A DNA stretch of 64,000 nucleotides from the NCBI GenBank assembly GCA_045863235.1, contig BTUM01000027.1, positions 20,667 through 84,666 on the forward strand. Reading direction: 5' to 3'. The position numbers are program-made. Origin of the DNA: Candidatus Xenobia bacterium (GTDB lineage: Bacteria > Vulcanimicrobiota > Xenobia > Xenobiales > QWHO01). This document shows, in pieces, positions 33,001 to 60,000 of the stretch. Position 1 is the first letter of the stretch. Each line of letters starts with the position of its first letter.

Positions 33001-36000
33001 CGTCAGGGGCTCCCTTCCTTGGAGGAGTCTGGAAAAAGCTCGCCGAAGCCCGCCGCACAGCCGGATTGTAAGCGAAGCACGCAGCCAGGCTGCGAGCAGA
33101 GCAATCACCTTTGGGAGGAACTTCGTGAGCGAGCAGGCGGGCGACCAGACACTTCAAGATCCGTCCATGAGCAAGCTGAAGGCACAACTGCCGCAAGAAA
33201 CTGCTCAGGCGCCTGAGCCCGAGCGGGTGAATGAGCGCCTGATTCAGCTGGAGGATGCTGCTCGCAAGACAGCCGAGGGTGAGTGGTCGGCTGAAGAGCT
33301 TGGCGAGTTCCTGGACGGCATCATTCGCATTCTCAACGAGCGCGAGCAGCAGATCCGCGAGATCGAGATTCCCCCTGAGGCCGTGGAGGACTTTCGTGAG
33401 GAGCTCGAGGTCGGCTTCTCCGGTATCCAGCTCTACACCGAGGGCGTCCAGCGCATGCTGCTGTTCGTGGAAGACCCCAACCCGGCGCACCTGGAGGAAG
33501 GGCTCGAGCTGGCGCGCCAGGGCAATGACCACATCAACGAGGCCATGCGCATCAACCGCGAGAATCGCCGCAAGCTCGAAGAAATGTACATCGACGCCTC
33601 CACCATGATGTAATGGAGCCCGCCGAAGGACCATGAAAAAAGCCCGGGCTTCGAGGCCCGGGCTTTTTCGTGGTCCGAGATTCAGCTTCGGAAATACTGG
33701 TGCCACATCTCGTTGACGCGTTGCATGGTCATCGCCTGGTTGACGGTCGACTCCTGGAAGGTCTTCATCCAGTAGTCCATGGTTTCTTTCATGATCTTCC
33801 AGCGCTCGGCCTCATGCTTTTGCCGCTCGGCCCAGATCTGCATCCAGATGTCGCGAGCCCCTTCCTGGTCCTGAAGGATCTGCTGCATTCGGCGAGCCTG
33901 GTCAGCCGCGGACATGGTCGGGCCGCCAGGACCACCGGGGCCTCCCGGGCCGGACGGGGGAATCCCGCTCCCGCCGGGCGGAACACCGCCACCACCGGGC
34001 GGGATGCCGCTCCCACCGGGCGGAACGCCGGTCCCCCCAGGGGGAATTCCGCTCCCTCCGGGTACGAATGCGCTGCCCCCAGGAGGCACACCGCCGCCGC
34101 CTCCAGGGGGAAGGCCCGAGCCGCCTCCAGGAGGAGTTGCTCCGCCTCCATTACCGGGCGCCTCGGCCACCGGCGAGGAGAGCAGGCCCGGAGCATTGGT
34201 GGAGCCGAGCAGCTGCTGCGCGGGTGGGCCTTGCAGGGCCAGACCGGACTGCTGGCCGACCAGCTGGTTTCCGCCCGGAGCCACGGGACCGCCGCCGTTG
34301 CCGGCCAGAGTCACCAGGTTCGTCCCGGCGGGAGTGCCGCCCAGGCTGTAGACCAGGCCCCTGCCCGTATTGGCGATCTGCTCCATCAGGCCGTACTGAC
34401 TGAGCTTGTCTCCGTAGGCTTTGAGCTCGGCGTTGCCAGGATCACTGGCCAGTTGAGCCGCGACTTCTTTGCTGGCTGCCTGACGGAAGATATCGATCGC
34501 GGGCGTCTGCTTGCCGGCTGCCCGATCGGCTTCGAACGCCTGGTTCAAAGCATCTCCGAAGGCAGGATTCTTAGCCAGTTGCGGGGGAACGTTGGTGCTG
34601 ATGTCGCCTTCCAGCTGGTTCAGTTGCGCAGAGGCCACATTGATGGCCGCCTGACCAGCGGCCGCGCCACCGGGCAACCCCTGACCCATCAGAGCCTTCC
34701 CCTCGTTCGCGAAGGCTGACTTGAAGCCATCCGGCGCCACCGAGACCAGCTCCACAAGCTGTTTGCCAAGTTGCTCAGGATCAAGAACTTCGGCCTGGCT
34801 CCCCGATTCGGCCCGAGGGGTGTTCTCGCGCCTGACCAGCTCGCGCGACTGGGACTCTTCGCCCTGGCGCGTCTGCTTGGCGCCGGCCTGGCCGGTGAGG
34901 CCCAGGTGGGTCGCGTTCTCCAGGTGCTCAGCGTGACGCTCCTGGTGGCTGAGGGTCACCTCGTCGTTTCGCTGCTCGACGGAGGTTCCGTCCGTCTTGC
35001 GAGTGGTTCCGGTGACCGCAGTCTGGCCCACGTGCTCGGTGCGCTTGACGAGGGCCTGCTGATTCCCGACCGCCGGATTGATGGGACTTCCACTTGTAGC
35101 CACGAAGCTCGCTCCTTTATCCCAGGTGTGTGGAGTATACCAGCCTGCGCTGAAGGCGTAAACGTCGAGTTTGTTTCCAAACTGTAAACAGATGGCCAAT
35201 CCGATAAATGTTAAAGCCCCGGGCGCCTGGAGCGTGGTCGGGCGTCGCGCAGCCGGAAATTGCCTCCGGGGCGCGACGACCACCCATCCACCGAGCCCAG
35301 AAAGCCCGGCGGCATCGGCCTAGCTCTTGATGTAGTCGCTCCATTTGTTGAACATCTTGTCCTGCGTCTTGGCCTGGTTGACGGTCACGTCCTGCTGAAT
35401 CTCGAAAATCTTCGTCTGTGTCTCGCGCAGAATCTTCCAGCGCTCGGCCTGCTGCTTTTGCGTATCGGCCATCATCTGGGTCTGAATGGTCTGGGCCTGC
35501 ATCTGGTCGCTCAGGGCCATCTGGGCGATCGAGGCGGCGTTGGCGGCTCCACCGATGAGTAACATGGTCGGTCCCTCCTGATTCTCTCTCTATCCCTCAA
35601 AAGTAGACGAAAGCTCTGAAAAAAAGCTGAGGGGCCGGCCTTGCGACCGACCCCGCAGAGAAAGCCCCACCCGATACAGGGACTTAGCTCTTGATATAGT
35701 CGCTCCACTTGTTGAACATCTTGTCCTGCGTCTTGGCCTGGTTGACCGTGACGTCCTGCTGAATTTCGAAGATCTTGGTCTGCGTCTCGCGCAGAATCTT
35801 CCAGCGCTCGGCCTGCTGCTTCTGCGTATCGGCCATCATCTGGGTCTGAATGGTCTGGGCCTGCATCTGGTCGCTCAGGGCCATCTGGGCGATCGAGGCG
35901 GCGTTGGCTGCTCCACCAATGAGTAGCATTGTTTTCGGTCCTCCCGGGTGTGTTATTTTTGACTTCTCTGTCTTGGGACTTCTATCACGCGCCCGGGCCG

Positions 36001-57000: not shown

Positions 57001-60000
57001 GTCATCTTCGTCGAGTAAAGCGACACCGGCCGATTGGAGGCGCTGATAACGCTGTAGCTCAGGCCGCCAGCCATCGCCAGCCCAATGACCACGAACAACA
57101 AAATCTTGACCTTAGGGCTGAGCTTGCCCCACAACTCGGTCACTTTGCCCAGCGGCCCACCTCCGCCAGGGCCTGCAGCCGCTCCACGTCCTGTTGCGAG
57201 CCTGCTGCCGGTTCGCATCCCCGTCTGGATCCCAGTGGCCATCGTAGGTCCTCTCCTTCCGATCCTCTCGATCCCCAAAACCCGGCTCTATCTGTGTGGC
57301 CCCCGGGCAAGGCCTGACTTCAGGCTACAGCTGCATCTGGAACAGCGTGGTCGTGGCTGTGGCCAGTTTGGAAGCGATGGTGGTGGTCATCTTCATCGCT
57401 ACCTCGGCTTTGGCGCCGGCGATGGTCATCTCGTGGATGTTGTCCATGTTGCCGGTGGCCAGAGCCTGGGTCATCTTCTTGGAGTTGTCTTGCACCGTGT
57501 TGACGGTGTTGATCGCATTGCCCAGAAGGGAGGCAAACGTGTTGGCCTGCTCTTCGGTGGGCTTGACGAGGGAGGGAGCCGAAGTACCGTCGAGGCCTTT
57601 GATGCCGCCGATACCACCGATGGGAGTCATGGAGAAGGGTTGCTGCACTGCCTGTTCCTCCTAAATCTTAGCCCTTACCGATTTCCAAAGCCTTCATCGC
57701 CATCGCCTTGGCCGACTCGACCGTGGTGGCGTTCGCTTCGAAGGCGCGACTGGCCTGAATCATTGTCGTCATTTCCTGGATAATATTCACATTGGGCATG
57801 GCCACGTATCCCTTGTGGGGGCCGTCCTTCTCCGCGTTGGGATTGCCGGGGTCGTAGACCCAGCGATAGTCCGACTGGTCCTTCTCGATCCCCTGCACTT
57901 TGACCCCGCCACCGTGGAACTTGACCGGGTCTTTGTTGAGGTCGATATCGAAGGACGCAGTGGCAAAGTCGCTTTCGAACTCAGCCTTCATCTGAGGGGA
58001 TACCATCGCCACCTGGCGCTGATAGGGAGTGCCTGCCTCGGTCTTGGAGGTGTTGGCATTGGCGATGTTCTCGGAGATGACGTTCATCCGGAACTGCTCG
58101 GCCGACATTCCACTGGCCGCGATGTCAAAGGTCTGGAAAAACTTCACTGGTCAGCCTCCTTCGGATTTAGCGACCGCTATTCTCGACGACCCATTTGAGC
58201 GCGCCATAGATCCCGGAGATCTTAGTAGCGAGCGCGTTGTACATGATCTGGTTCTTGGCCAGGCTGGCCATTTCTTGGTTGACGTCGACCTTGCCGACCT
58301 GGTCGACCAACTCAGGCTGCAGGCTGGCCATCGACCAACCGGTTCCATCCAGAGTGAACTCTTTGTCGACCGCCCCCGCCGCGCCGACCGCCACTTCACC
58401 GTTCTTCTCCGCATCCTCGTTGGCCATCGCCTCGCGGAGGTGGGTTTCGAAGACCACGGTCTGGCCCTGATAACCCGGAGTGTTGATGTTGGCAATGTTG
58501 TTGGAGATGACCTGCTGACGCATGCTGGCTGCGTTCAGCGCCTTCTCGAGCATAGTCGTGTCAACTATACTGTAAGGCTTGCCCATAATCGGTACTCCTC
58601 CCTGCTTTCGAACCCGTAGTGCCAAAAGCGGCTGGCCTGAGTTGTCGGGGACCGTCTCTGTCTGTAAGGTCCGTCCTGGTCGTCGCTGGTTGCTCAAACG
58701 CGCTACACGCAGAGCTTAAGCGCCTGTTTTCAGTGTATCGGCAGGCTGTTTCCAGCTTATTAGCGCTATGTTAACAGAGTGTTAACGAGACTGACGGAAC
58801 TGCCGGGGTCAAGAGAATGATGTTTCTGTAACGTTTCCAGTTCGCTCGACCGGGGTCGATATCCTGGAAAGCGATGTCCCGGGGAGAGCCACTTTACATT
58901 TTGGAAACAGGTGGGATAAGCAGGGAGAAACCGAACCGAGGGTAAACTCTGGCCTTGTTGCGTCAGAGTCCAGTGTAACTCCCGACGCGTTCGCTTACAA
59001 GCTTGGAAAGTTGGTGAAGGATCCTTGGATCCGATGAGGCCTGGCCCGCCGCCCGGAACTCCCGGCGGCGTACAAATACCGCTAACCGAAGAGTGGTTTC
59101 GGGCCCAGAAGAAGGCCCTCAAGGAAGCTGGCATGGAGAAATACAATGCCGCTTCCAACGAGGCTAGCGATGTCTATAGCCCTAGCGAGGCGGCCCAGAA
59201 GATCCCAGGTGAGCAGCAAGAGAAGTTCCTGGCCAACGTGATGCCCTCCTTGCTCGAGATGGACGAAAACGACGAGAACTTCCTGCCCGACGCCACCGAG
59301 AAGTTGGTCGGGTCAGCCCTGGAGCAAGAATTCGGGGAAGAGATCCAGCAAAAACCTGGCTTTCCACAGATGCAGCAGAAAATCAGCCGCACCATCCTGT
59401 CCGATGATCGCTACCGGGAAGTCGTGGTCGACTTTCTCAACTGTGTACTGCAGCACAAGGGAAGAACGGGCGAAGAGCCGGCTCCGGCCCCCCAGGAGTA
59501 GGCTGCCGACGGCACGAAGCGGCGGCAGCCATGTCCGTAACCACTGAGCAAGTTCTTCAGGCACTGAGTGCCGTCAACGACCCGGAGTTGGGGCGCGACG
59601 TCGTCACTCTGGGAATGATCAAAGACCTCACCGTGCAGGGGGGCAAGGTTCACTTCACACTCGAGTTGACCACCCCGGCCTGCCCCGTCAAAGAGGAGTT
59701 CAAGGCCAGTTGCCAGCAAGCGGTCGCTGCCCTGGCGGGCGTAGAGAGCGTGACAGTCGAACTCTCGGCCCGCCAGCGGGCCACCCGCCCGGCCCTCGGC
59801 AGCGAGCTGGCCCGCGAGGTCAAGAACATCCTGGCCGTGGCCAGCGGGAAAGGTGGCGTCGGGAAATCGACCGTGGCCAGCAACCTGGCCTGCGCCCTGG
59901 CCGCTGAGGGGGCCCGAGTAGGACTGCTCGACCTGGACGTCTATGGACCGAGCATTCCCGCCCTGCTGGGCCTCAAGCACGGCGAGCTGGCTTACTACGA

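Follow-up and report, generated by a model that had tools for sequence, protein, structure and literature searches.

A motorless flagellar-type export system in Vulcanimicrobiota, linked to a small helical protein and possibly building a Hrp-like pilus

Abby and Rocha concluded that NF-T3SS had a single origin from the flagellum, via a secretin-less intermediate, and absence of flgB, flgC and fliE serves as the criterion for an injectisome (PMC3459982). The Hrp1, Hrp2 and Rhc systems carry a Hrp or Nop pilus, whose pilins are 63-113 aa long, almost entirely helical, and share little sequence (PMC3973906). The 'needleless' T3SS* of Myxococcus, which together with the Kil pilus lyses prey (PMC12075869), has no secretin; in phylogenies it groups with NF-T3SS, and FlgB/C, FliE and FliG are missing from it (PMC3459982). 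Buchnera basal bodies derive from a flagellar locus without filament or motility, and a role in protein secretion has been proposed for them (PMC3459982). Within the phylum of the bacterium studied here, Ca. Eudoremicrobiaceae are predicted predators (PMC9259500).

We analyzed a window of 64,000 nucleotides from Candidatus Xenobia bacterium (assembly GCA_045863235.1, contig BTUM01000027.1). As an earlier note on this DNA had listed, genes from flgB to flhA were recognized by Pfam at 40054-58586 on the minus strand, all with open reading frames (Table 1). Their order is colinear with the Bacillus fla/che operon (flgB-flgC-fliE-fliF-fliG-fliH-fliI-fliJ-x-fliK-hook-fliM-fliN-fliO-fliP-fliQ-fliR-flhB-flhA), and FlhA, FliI and FliF scored above the cut-offs of flagellar models. 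The core type III export set (FlhA, FlhB, FliP/Q/R, FliI/H/J, FliF, FliM/N) is complete and open, and the rod proteins FlgB, FlgC and FliE, as well as the MS and C rings, are present. Unlike an injectisome as defined above, this locus keeps the rod genes, FliG, FliM and FliF, which NF-T3SS lack (PMC3459982). The second FliG-like gene was not found at the matching place in two complete type B operons of other families (L105, L120). Genes resembling flgF and flgG lie on contig C74, apart from the main operon. The claim that these are the only flagellar genes of the genome did not hold, as we found five to six FlhA paralogues consisting of the cytoplasmic domain only, a second FliF (C9), a FliF piece (C83), an FlgE/G-like gene (C94) and a FliA-like sigma factor (C11). 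Nor is 271 aa an odd size for the protein at the hook position, since the Bacillus gene at the same operon position encodes 258 aa.

Table 1. Features of the export operon and the adjoining genes, with positions counted along the window
Feature	Position	Strand	Basis
flgB, rod	58167..58586	-	Pfam Flg_bb_rod
flgC, rod	57668..58147	-	Pfam
fliE	57325..57648	-	Pfam FliE
fliF, MS ring (start uncertain, longest ORF taken)	55608..57278	-	Pfam; TIGR00206 above cut-off
Second FliG-like protein without FliG_C	54691..55557	-	Pfam FliG_N and FliG_M only
fliG with Glu at the R281 and Pro at the R297 position in place of the torque arginines	53652..54593	-	Residue comparison
fliH	52583..53473	-	Pfam
fliI, export ATPase	51265..52593	-	TIGR03497 FliI_clade2 above cut-off; SctN model below cut-off
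fliJ	50789..51265	-	Pfam
Lytic transglycosylase (SLT), kept in type B clusters	50020..50664	-	Pfam and relatives' loci
FliK-like ruler/specificity switch	49060..49980	-	Pfam Flg_hook and HpaP
271-aa FlgE/F/G-family protein, hook-gene position, no flgD ahead	48017..48832	-	Pfam, operon comparison
fliM without N-terminal CheY-binding motif	46862..47827	-	Pfam and motif check
Two fliN	46266..46869	-	Pfam FliMN_C
fliO	45577..46269	-	Pfam
fliP, fliQ, fliQ, fliR, export gate	43333..45566	-	Pfam
flhB	42210..43310	-	Pfam
flhA, type B clade	40054..42192	-	TIGR01398 above cut-off; SctV model below cut-off; trees
Homocysteine methyltransferase/MTHFR fusion and class III aminotransferase	36817..40035	-	Pfam and loci
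104-aa conserved three-helix protein	36496..36810	-	33 relatives aligned; pLDDT 86
Sigma-70-like promoter match ahead of first 81-aa gene	36422..36450	-	Pattern scan
81-aa helix copy 1, candidate pilin (terminator-like hairpin after it, 36097-36120)	36140..36385	-	ORF, structure model
81-aa helix copy 2 (hairpin after it, 35631-35654)	35684..35929	-	ORF
81-aa helix copy 3	35320..35565	-	ORF
Sigma-70-like promoter match ahead of 473-aa gene	35134..35162	-	Pattern scan
473-aa protein, Gly/Pro-rich linker (21-nt repeats) and C-terminal module	33682..35103	-	ORF, alignment
162-aa helical protein, conserved neighbor, opposite strand	33125..33613	+	Loci comparison, alignment
LolA-like exported protein, conserved neighbor	32100..32978	-	Pfam LolA_like below cut-off; loci comparison

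Compared with a Bacillus-type flagellum, flgD, flbD, fliL, motAB, cheY, flagellin and hook-associated proteins are missing, torque and switch residues are lost, an SLT gene occupies the motE position and new genes lie downstream; the operon itself holds no flgD, fliL, stator or chemotaxis genes. The absence of flagellin, stator and P-ring reported earlier was borne out: in this genome, which is 97.6% complete in 166 contigs, Flagellin_N, MotB_plug and FlgI had no match, and the lone MotA_ExbB match, on C90, is an ExbB whose neighbor is ExbD-like. Flagellin_N was likewise absent from all 19 genomes of family f3. Searches of the Xenobia genome recovered no FlgD by profile or tblastn and no tblastn match for FliL, MotA, FlbD, FlgM, FlgL or FliW, while the sole tblastn match of FlgK (74 aa) fell on a rod gene. 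No match was found for SctD, SctW, SctK, SycD or CesT. The cells are diderm (BamA was found); we found no secretin for the export machine, the two secretins of the genome belonging to T2SS and type IV pilus operons.

Motor and switch residues are gone from type B FliG and FliM. At the position of R281 all 22 type B FliG have Asp or Glu and at that of R297 Pro or Ser, whereas all 10 type A proteins have Arg at the former and Arg or Lys at the latter; numbering and roles of the torque residues follow PMC6079164, and the spacing (17/7/9) agrees. Equivalents of K264 and D289 are retained. None of 35 type B FliM had the CheY-binding motif, with a weak control (motif in one of four by pattern, two of four by eye). 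Because both torque arginines are replaced and the CheY motif is lost, the type B machine is unlikely to rotate, although the FliG and FliM changes are single inherited events.

The type B FlhA had been described as a paralogous clade, and our trees recovered it as one (SH-aLRT 99-100), spread across Vulcanimicrobiota and distinct from the classical flagellum (type A). FlhA occurred in all 44 genomes of the class, flagellin in 10, strong MotB_plug matches in the same 10 and FlgI in 8 of those. Coexistence with a classical flagellin-linked cluster was also confirmed, as 9 of the 10 flagellin-bearing class genomes have a second full-length FlhA. Across the phylum sample FlhA was found in 142 of 151 genomes and flagellin in 50. 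'Flagellar' annotations in Vulcanimicrobiota do not mean motility. FlhA is 62-90% identical over the class, with no stops, and the rod genes and machinery are still intact in 2.4-Mb genomes. In the best trees type B falls within flagellar FlhA, but a position as sister to SctV was not rejected (p-AU values of 0.83 and 0.36). Family f14 has a strongly diverged, reduced version, and the largest family has a reduced machine with no detectable pilin.

Downstream of flhA, the three tandem 81-aa ORFs noted before encode an identical protein at 90-95% DNA identity, with 12-21 synonymous and 0 non-synonymous codon differences between copies. AlphaFold predicts one helix, as claimed (residues 3-79, pLDDT 82); the protein is polar, with 14 Gln among 81 residues and no hydrophobic segment. 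Relatives are 77-90 aa long and 60-75% identical between families, column identity being 0.90 over the last 45 residues against 0.59 over the first 30, and most genomes carry several copies. Three near copies elsewhere in the Xenobia genome (C69, C78, C3; 79-88%) match the number given earlier, which missed two further diverged module genes (C74, C12). The 473-aa protein does end in the same module (41% identity over 75 aa) and is a candidate minor or tip subunit; at most loci the small gene is followed by a long protein with the module at its end. The 104-aa protein showed no clear fold match and is a possible chaperone or assembly partner. Our promoter scan found 2 sites in 3.5 kb, against 0.4 ± 0.8 in shuffles.

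The small gene had been tied to flhA despite two intervening metabolic genes, and this link stands, as the pair is a variable insert and several families have no such genes between flhA and the small genes. In 18 of 19 class loci and in 6 of 10 from other classes, the module is encoded no more than 8 kb downstream of type B flhA, a count from a wider profile built partly from syntenic genes (an independent profile gave strong matches in 13 of the 18 class loci). It was near none of five type A and none of five orphan flhA loci. In five loci the 104-aa gene starts 46-103 bases past flhA. The module was not detected in 94 genomes of f14/f18/f19, two of f11 and one of f7 (the last with one weak local match), where type B FlhA is kept. 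It also occurs in genomes without a FlhA match or far from flagellar genes, and so appears able to work without the export machine.

Features of Hrp-type pilins are shared by the small protein: a length of 60-115 aa, nearly all helix, a conserved C-terminus and a gene in the cluster. The nearest named ESM Atlas clusters were HrpA_pilin (0.91 and 0.90, the family being assigned on 23-24% of members) and HrpE-like (0.88), at a level (0.9) that shuffled proteins reach 4-10 times per 100. The HrpA_pilin Pfam model gave a best E of 1.9, in 2 of 44 members, PDB held no match, and SctF and two small Hrp2-cluster proteins scored below 3 bits; sequence comparison gave no significant connection with a pilin or needle of any kind. 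The resemblance to Hrp/Nop systems is that of a motorless exporter with a small all-helical candidate filament subunit and conserved C-terminus, whereas a linked secretin, SctD, SctW and SctF are missing and the candidate pilin shows no detectable homology by sequence.

The FlhA clade, its distribution, the FliG and FliM residues and the linkage uphold the earlier proposal that a motorless, paralogous secretion system of flagellar type is linked to a small helical protein. We lean, with modest confidence, toward a type III secretion system that does not rotate and builds a Hrp-like pilus, a reading based on the observed gene content, distribution, motor-residue loss and linkage, and on a predicted helix. 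It would have its source in a Terrabacteria-style flagellar operon. The MS ring, export gate, ATPase and a C ring acting only as sorting platform would assemble, the transglycosylase would open the cell wall, and FliE/FlgB/C/F/G with the 271-aa protein would build a rod with a short extension, its length set by FliK. Once FlhB has switched specificity, the 80-residue helix would be exported in place of flagellin; that it is exported is probable, and that it then polymerizes into a thin pilus, through the 45 conserved residues at its C-terminus, is somewhat favored. Longer module-ending proteins may serve as minor subunits or at the tip, and the 104-aa protein may be a chaperone. The machine would likely be used on contact with other cells, for predation, parasitism or adhesion, and contact-dependent delivery is conceivable, if short of an even chance.

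Alternatively, the exporter might secrete the 81-aa helix as an effector or translocator-like protein acting on target cells. The presence of the module at toxin-tip positions and behind a double-glycine leader, and the dispersal of extra copies over the genome, would suit this, but effectors are commonly variable and patchy, and the small protein is conserved between families, linked to flhA and polar without a hydrophobic segment, making the effector role unlikely. We also think it rather improbable that a filament-less basal body secretes to the periplasm or medium in the way suggested for Buchnera and the Myxococcus T3SS*, with the helices as cytoplasmic adaptors or chaperones binding by homotypic contacts. 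The retention of the full rod, hook-position protein, FliK and transglycosylase, the display of the module on exported proteins and a triplicated gene suggestive of bulk need all speak against it, even though genes for an outer-membrane ring, a hook cap or a tip were not found, no module was detected with the reduced machine of f14/f18, the TIR and CHAT fusions described below are cytoplasmic and the many FlhA cytoplasmic-domain paralogues point to docking roles. Both described systems also differ from this locus: that of Myxococcus lacks FlgB/C, FliE and FliG, which are kept here beside a dedicated candidate filament, and Buchnera represents recent loss in a reduced endosymbiont, as opposed to an ancient paralogue beside a true flagellum with dedicated genes gained.

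A working rotary flagellum with an unrecognized filament and a borrowed ExbBD-like stator could draw on the retained FliG_C, FliM and FliN, including the K264 and D289 equivalents, and on the one ExbB; with the R281 charge reversed and R297 lost in all 22 type B FliG, and no FliL, MotA, MotB plug, P-ring or CheY motif, it is highly improbable. Hardest to credit is a flagellar relic in decay, or a flagellin missed through gaps in the assembly, the neighboring genes being unrelated: the fragmented assembly and the diverged, reduced f14 form would allow it, but FlhA is conserved and free of stops over the class, flagellin was found in none of the 19 f3 genomes, and a complete type A flagellum is present alongside type B in some genomes.

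Under the preferred reading of a pilus-building secretion system, a phylum-wide lineage without motor, cap and filament, with rod and a pilin-like gene, would be either a second origin of such systems or a living form near the secretin-less intermediate. Evolution may thus have turned a flagellum into an injection device twice. The type B lineage makes the flagellum-to-injectisome transition testable, and its machine provides a means by which some phylum members could live as the predators they are predicted to be.

The module ends TIR proteins in 28 of 120 longer relatives, in other microbes outside the phylum, and CHAT fusions were also found. It forms the C-terminus of Rhs (P0191, P0157) and VgrG (P0163) proteins, where toxin tips sit. 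It is also displayed on exported proteins and was found behind a double-glycine leader (P0244, L071). On TIR, Rhs and VgrG proteins it is placed as a decoy or sensor would be, and the TIR fusions suggest a bacterial immune response to the secretion apparatus of another bacterium. Plant NLRs carry integrated decoys and NAIP senses the needle; the shared idea is a mimic or sensor of an attacker's secretion protein joined to a TIR or caspase-like output, whereas the proteins here are bacterial TIR/CHAT proteins. We entertain only tentatively the wider scenario of a second, independent conversion, as old as the phylum, of a flagellum into a contact-dependent injection machine (or of a surviving rod-bearing sister of the injectisome ancestor) with a convergent Hrp-like pilus used against other microbes, whose targets would have repeatedly captured the pilin's assembly helix as a decoy, in a TIR/CHAT intracellular alarm or displayed or secreted to cap the pilus.

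The flagellar-type genes of the window formed one unbroken operon, ordered flgB, flgC, fliE, fliF, a FliG-like gene without the C-domain, fliG, fliH, fliI, fliJ, a lytic transglycosylase gene, a FliK-like gene, a 271-aa FlgE/F/G-family gene, fliM, two fliN genes, fliO, fliP, two fliQ genes, fliR, flhB and flhA. The genes listed in an earlier note were all present. Gene by gene, the order was that of the fla/che operon of Bacillus, except that flgD, flbD, fliL and cheY had no counterpart in the window operon, flhF and the che genes farther downstream were also lacking, and SLT occupied the position of motE. 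Two further rod genes lay on contig C74 of the source genome in a second small operon, 8 kb from a 133-aa gene carrying the module, by which we mean the conserved helix of the 81-aa protein that also ends longer proteins. On the 3' side of flhA lay first two metabolic genes, for a homocysteine methyltransferase/MTHFR fusion and for a class III aminotransferase; next came an open reading frame (ORF) of 104 aa, three of 81 aa and one of 473 aa, the last ending in the module. Database-named relatives were Eremiobacterota/Vulcanimicrobiota, including Ca. Xenobium and Ca. Bruticola.

Flagellin_N, MotB_plug, FlgD and FlgI had no match in the source genome (97.6% complete), whose single MotA_ExbB match was ExbB, bearing out the earlier report of neither flagellin nor a MotA/MotB stator. 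Searches of the same genome with tblastn at E 0.001 returned no match for FliL, MotA, FlbD, FlgM, FlgL, FliW or FlgD, nor for SctD, SctW, SctK, SycD or CesT. The statement that the cluster held the only flagellar genes of this genome proved too strong, as flagellar-family genes occurred at further sites: a second FliF and a FliF fragment, a gene resembling FlgE/G, one for a FliA-like sigma factor, and five to six paralogues of the FlhA cytoplasmic domain, of which one was fused to a FliG_N-like start. FHIPEP matches numbered 2-19 per genome throughout the class, 2.4-Mb genomes included, and the paralogues are possibly alternative docking subunits for the export gate of the window system.

Coordinates of features in the window, at other sites of the source genome (contigs prefixed C) and at loci of other genomes (prefixed L)
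Feature	Location	Strand	Remarks
Conserved block beyond the module genes	window 30450-33613		related 162-aa and 166-aa helical proteins, LolA-like protein, LysM-NlpC/P60
473-aa protein	window 33682-35103		ends in the module
Three tandem 81-aa genes	window 35320-36385		candidate pilin
104-aa protein	window 36496-36810	-	
Flagellar-type operon	window 40054-58586	-	unbroken
Second small operon	C74:407-4124		two rod genes, 99-aa protein (presumably FlgJ-like), 93-aa protein (presumably FlhB-C-like), 484-aa protein
133-aa module gene	C74:12551-12952		
FlhA cytoplasmic-domain paralogues	C80:28012-29436, C3:26973-28175, C1:377631-378854, C107:13658-15829, C106:14866-16857		no membrane domain
Second FliF	C9:5642-7162		dispersed from operon
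Short FliF piece	C83:15067-15639		dispersed from operon
FlgE/G-like protein	C94:8973-9908		dispersed from operon; with leader
FliA-like sigma factor	C11:113983-114723		37% to Thermomicrobium FliA; genome without flagellin or FlgM
Blastocatellia locus	L071:9073-10144		ABC exporter-like gene next to three short precursors whose leaders are of double-glycine type (labels are our reading)
Desulfitobacterium isolate	L068:9971-10237		stand-alone 88-aa family member among unrelated genes

Among genomes of the class Xenobia, FlhA was present in 44/44 and flagellin in 10/44; strong MotB_plug matches occurred in those same 10 and FlgI in 8 of them, while the two weak MotB_plug matches both fell in family f3. 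At least two full-length FlhA proteins were encoded by nine of the ten flagellin-bearing genomes, the tenth being 61% complete. Across a phylum sample of 151 genomes, 142 had FlhA and 50 had flagellin. The window FlhA belonged to a 25-row clade covering all classes sampled (type B, SH-aLRT 100), apart from the flagellin-linked FlhA of classical flagella (type A, SH-aLRT 99) and from the injectisome counterpart SctV (100), and further FlhA trees recovered type B with 13 rows (SH-aLRT 99). Type B is therefore the conserved system of this phylum and the true flagellum an optional one, and the paralogous FlhA clade proposed earlier does coexist with a classical cluster in some relatives. A supplementary table for Ca. 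Eudoremicrobium taraoceanii lists two full-length flhA genes, both annotated as flagellar, one beside motAB, flagellin and flgI and the other on a separate scaffold with fliI (PMC9259500). The single cultured member of the phylum is described as Gram-negative in its envelope and as having neither flagella nor a gene for flagellin (PMC9758169). Families f14, f18 and f19 kept a diverged and reduced type B cluster with no recognisable fliG in the loci read. Orphan full-length FlhA copies (L085, L087, L089, L091, L097, L098), 62-74% identical to the window FlhA and nested in type B, stood without export-gate or module neighbours.

The stator contacts of Escherichia coli FliG are given as primary R281, D288 and D289 and secondary K264 and R297 (PMC6079164). 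We mapped these via Thermotoga structure sequences, in which the 17/7/9 spacing was identical, onto the 32 readable C-domains among 60 matches. Type A FliG had Arg at 281 and Arg/Lys at 297 in 10/10 each, and type B FliG had Asp/Glu at 281 with Pro/Ser at 297 in 22/22. Type B retained K264 and, at 289, an acidic residue. The N-terminal motif of FliM that we take to bind CheY, visible in the Bacillus protein, was absent from type B FliM in 35/35, a result to be read against controls that were positive in only 1/4 by pattern and 2/4 by eye. These changes are single inherited events, yet they show that the ring itself is altered, a difference for which missing assembly could not account. A tree joining type B to SctV was not rejected (p-AU 0.83 for FlhA alone, 0.36 for four genes) and, for FlhA alone, scored above the quick free tree, but sisterhood of types B and A was not rejected either (p-AU 0.71 and 0.24). 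The best FlhA trees placed type B among Terrabacteria-type flagellar FlhA (unstarred support 83-93), and the four-gene tree, with much missing data, joined SctV to Proteobacteria (94). Gene order and the kept rod, FliG and FliM favour an origin separate from injectisomes, although the trees fall short of proof. In an Acidobacteria locus (L082, genome G045), a FliF/SctJ-like gene adjoined the gene for an SctV-like export gate that branched deeply.

The three tandem 81-aa copies and the 473-aa protein sharing their module were found as the earlier note had described them. The copies encode the same protein despite 12-21 synonymous codon differences, with no replacements, a pattern that excludes both decay and duplication by the assembly. 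Relatives of similar length numbered 199, and the module matched in 38/44 class genomes, mostly in several copies. The six without a match form one genus, in which an 80-84-aa Gln-rich ORF occupied the same place in 5/5 loci fetched, with weak similarity to the 81-aa protein (E 0.13-0.88, and 2e-4 at a probability of 49% in a profile-profile comparison); after it came two longer proteins whose helical ends were similar, and there was no 104-aa gene. A wider profile taking in three of these ORFs matched 54/151 phylum genomes (36/36 of the class and 18/21 of families f6-f13 and f15-f17) and 0/94 in f14, f18 and f19. Going downstream from type B flhA, the module was reached within 8 kb in 18/19 class loci with enough sequence, the exception (G005) having its module genes elsewhere on the same contig, and in 6/10 loci of other classes, compared with 0/9 reduced, 0/5 orphan and 0/5 type A loci. 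As the 104-aa gene starts 46-103 bases past flhA in five loci, the metabolic genes of the window are inserts. The 104-aa protein gave no Foldseek match at E 0.001, a best VIA Z of 7.5 among unrelated helical proteins and a best Atlas value of 0.76.

The 81-aa protein was predicted to be one helix, conserved at its C-terminal and variable at its N-terminal end. A hydrophobic-moment scan was uninformative, its peak near 98-100 degrees being accompanied by others of similar size. Pfam, NCBIfam and PDB held no significant match, and clusters of HrpA pilins and HrpE-like proteins in the ESM Atlas, at 0.88-0.91, provide a lead only. Hrp/Nop pilins are described as 63-113 aa, nearly wholly helical and dissimilar in sequence (PMC3973906), so absent homology is no strong argument against a pilin role. 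Metatranscriptome contigs from four runs (four of the 24 listed, from four studies) covered 29-30 of the 30 bins of 32001-52000 and were mostly 90-99% alike to the window, pointing to a near relative. The two bins that contain the 81-aa genes had the greatest depth (41-321 vs at most 68 elsewhere), which we set aside as expression evidence because genes cannot be ranked by the depth of contigs and the copies are pooled. Codon bias was weak in the source genome, the three copies standing at the 98th, 97th and 68th percentiles, similar to other cluster genes.

We regard the type B system as real and conserved, a form of type III secretion that has a candidate pilin, and found no description of it in open-access full text. 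Ji et al., writing on this phylum in 2021, may mention flagellar genes. It seems somewhat better than an even proposition that a non-rotating type III machine exports the 81-aa helix and builds a pilus from it. Such a machine would first build the rod and a short extension; export would then switch to the 81-aa helix, with the longer module-bearing proteins as minor subunits. The main gaps of this proposal concern the passage through the outer membrane, the reduced form without the module, and effectors or translocons, of which we identified none for type B. BamA is present and the secretins of the source genome belong to other systems; the conserved block beyond the module genes contains candidates for the missing envelope part.

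The module also occurs outside the phylum. A profile search gave 435 clusters of the module family at 50% identity. In 120 longer relatives drawn from the best 7,999 candidates, the module was C-terminal in 83, N-terminal in 5 and internal in 32, with a TIR domain in 28 and a CHAT domain in 2. It ended within 3 residues of the C-terminus in 33/34 TIR proteins examined; the TIR parts had a median identity of 44%, included TIR-NB-ARC and trypsin-TIR-TPR forms, and shared an invariant glutamate, at what we take to be the catalytic position, across 24 aligned proteins. The module also ended one Rhs and one VgrG protein and was present in an autotransporter, and many module proteins had signal-peptide-like starts. 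Such fusions fit capture of an attacker's subunit as a decoy or sensor; a toxin tip or a general helix for self-assembly would fit equally well. The module occurred in just 4/56 metagenome neighbourhoods of TIR-module genes, all on contigs below 2.2 kb. At five loci, four from Acidobacteria and one from Desulfitobacterium, the module had no flagellar neighbour, and one of these five genomes had no FlhA match. The core of the third Blastocatellia precursor was 82% like the module. A family of ~160-aa proteins (L063, L064, L066; alignment A5), with Acidobacteria among its holders, combined a C-terminal module with an alpha/beta N-terminal domain that had no PDB relative. A Patescibacteria match (L076) was a chance hit.

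Methionine-cycle genes recurred within type B clusters, as MetH/MTHFR at 36817-40035 of the window and, in the reduced form of f14, as an MTHFR-like gene that separates fliP from fliQ (L186, L188, L183). The 81-aa protein beside them is rich in Met and Gln.
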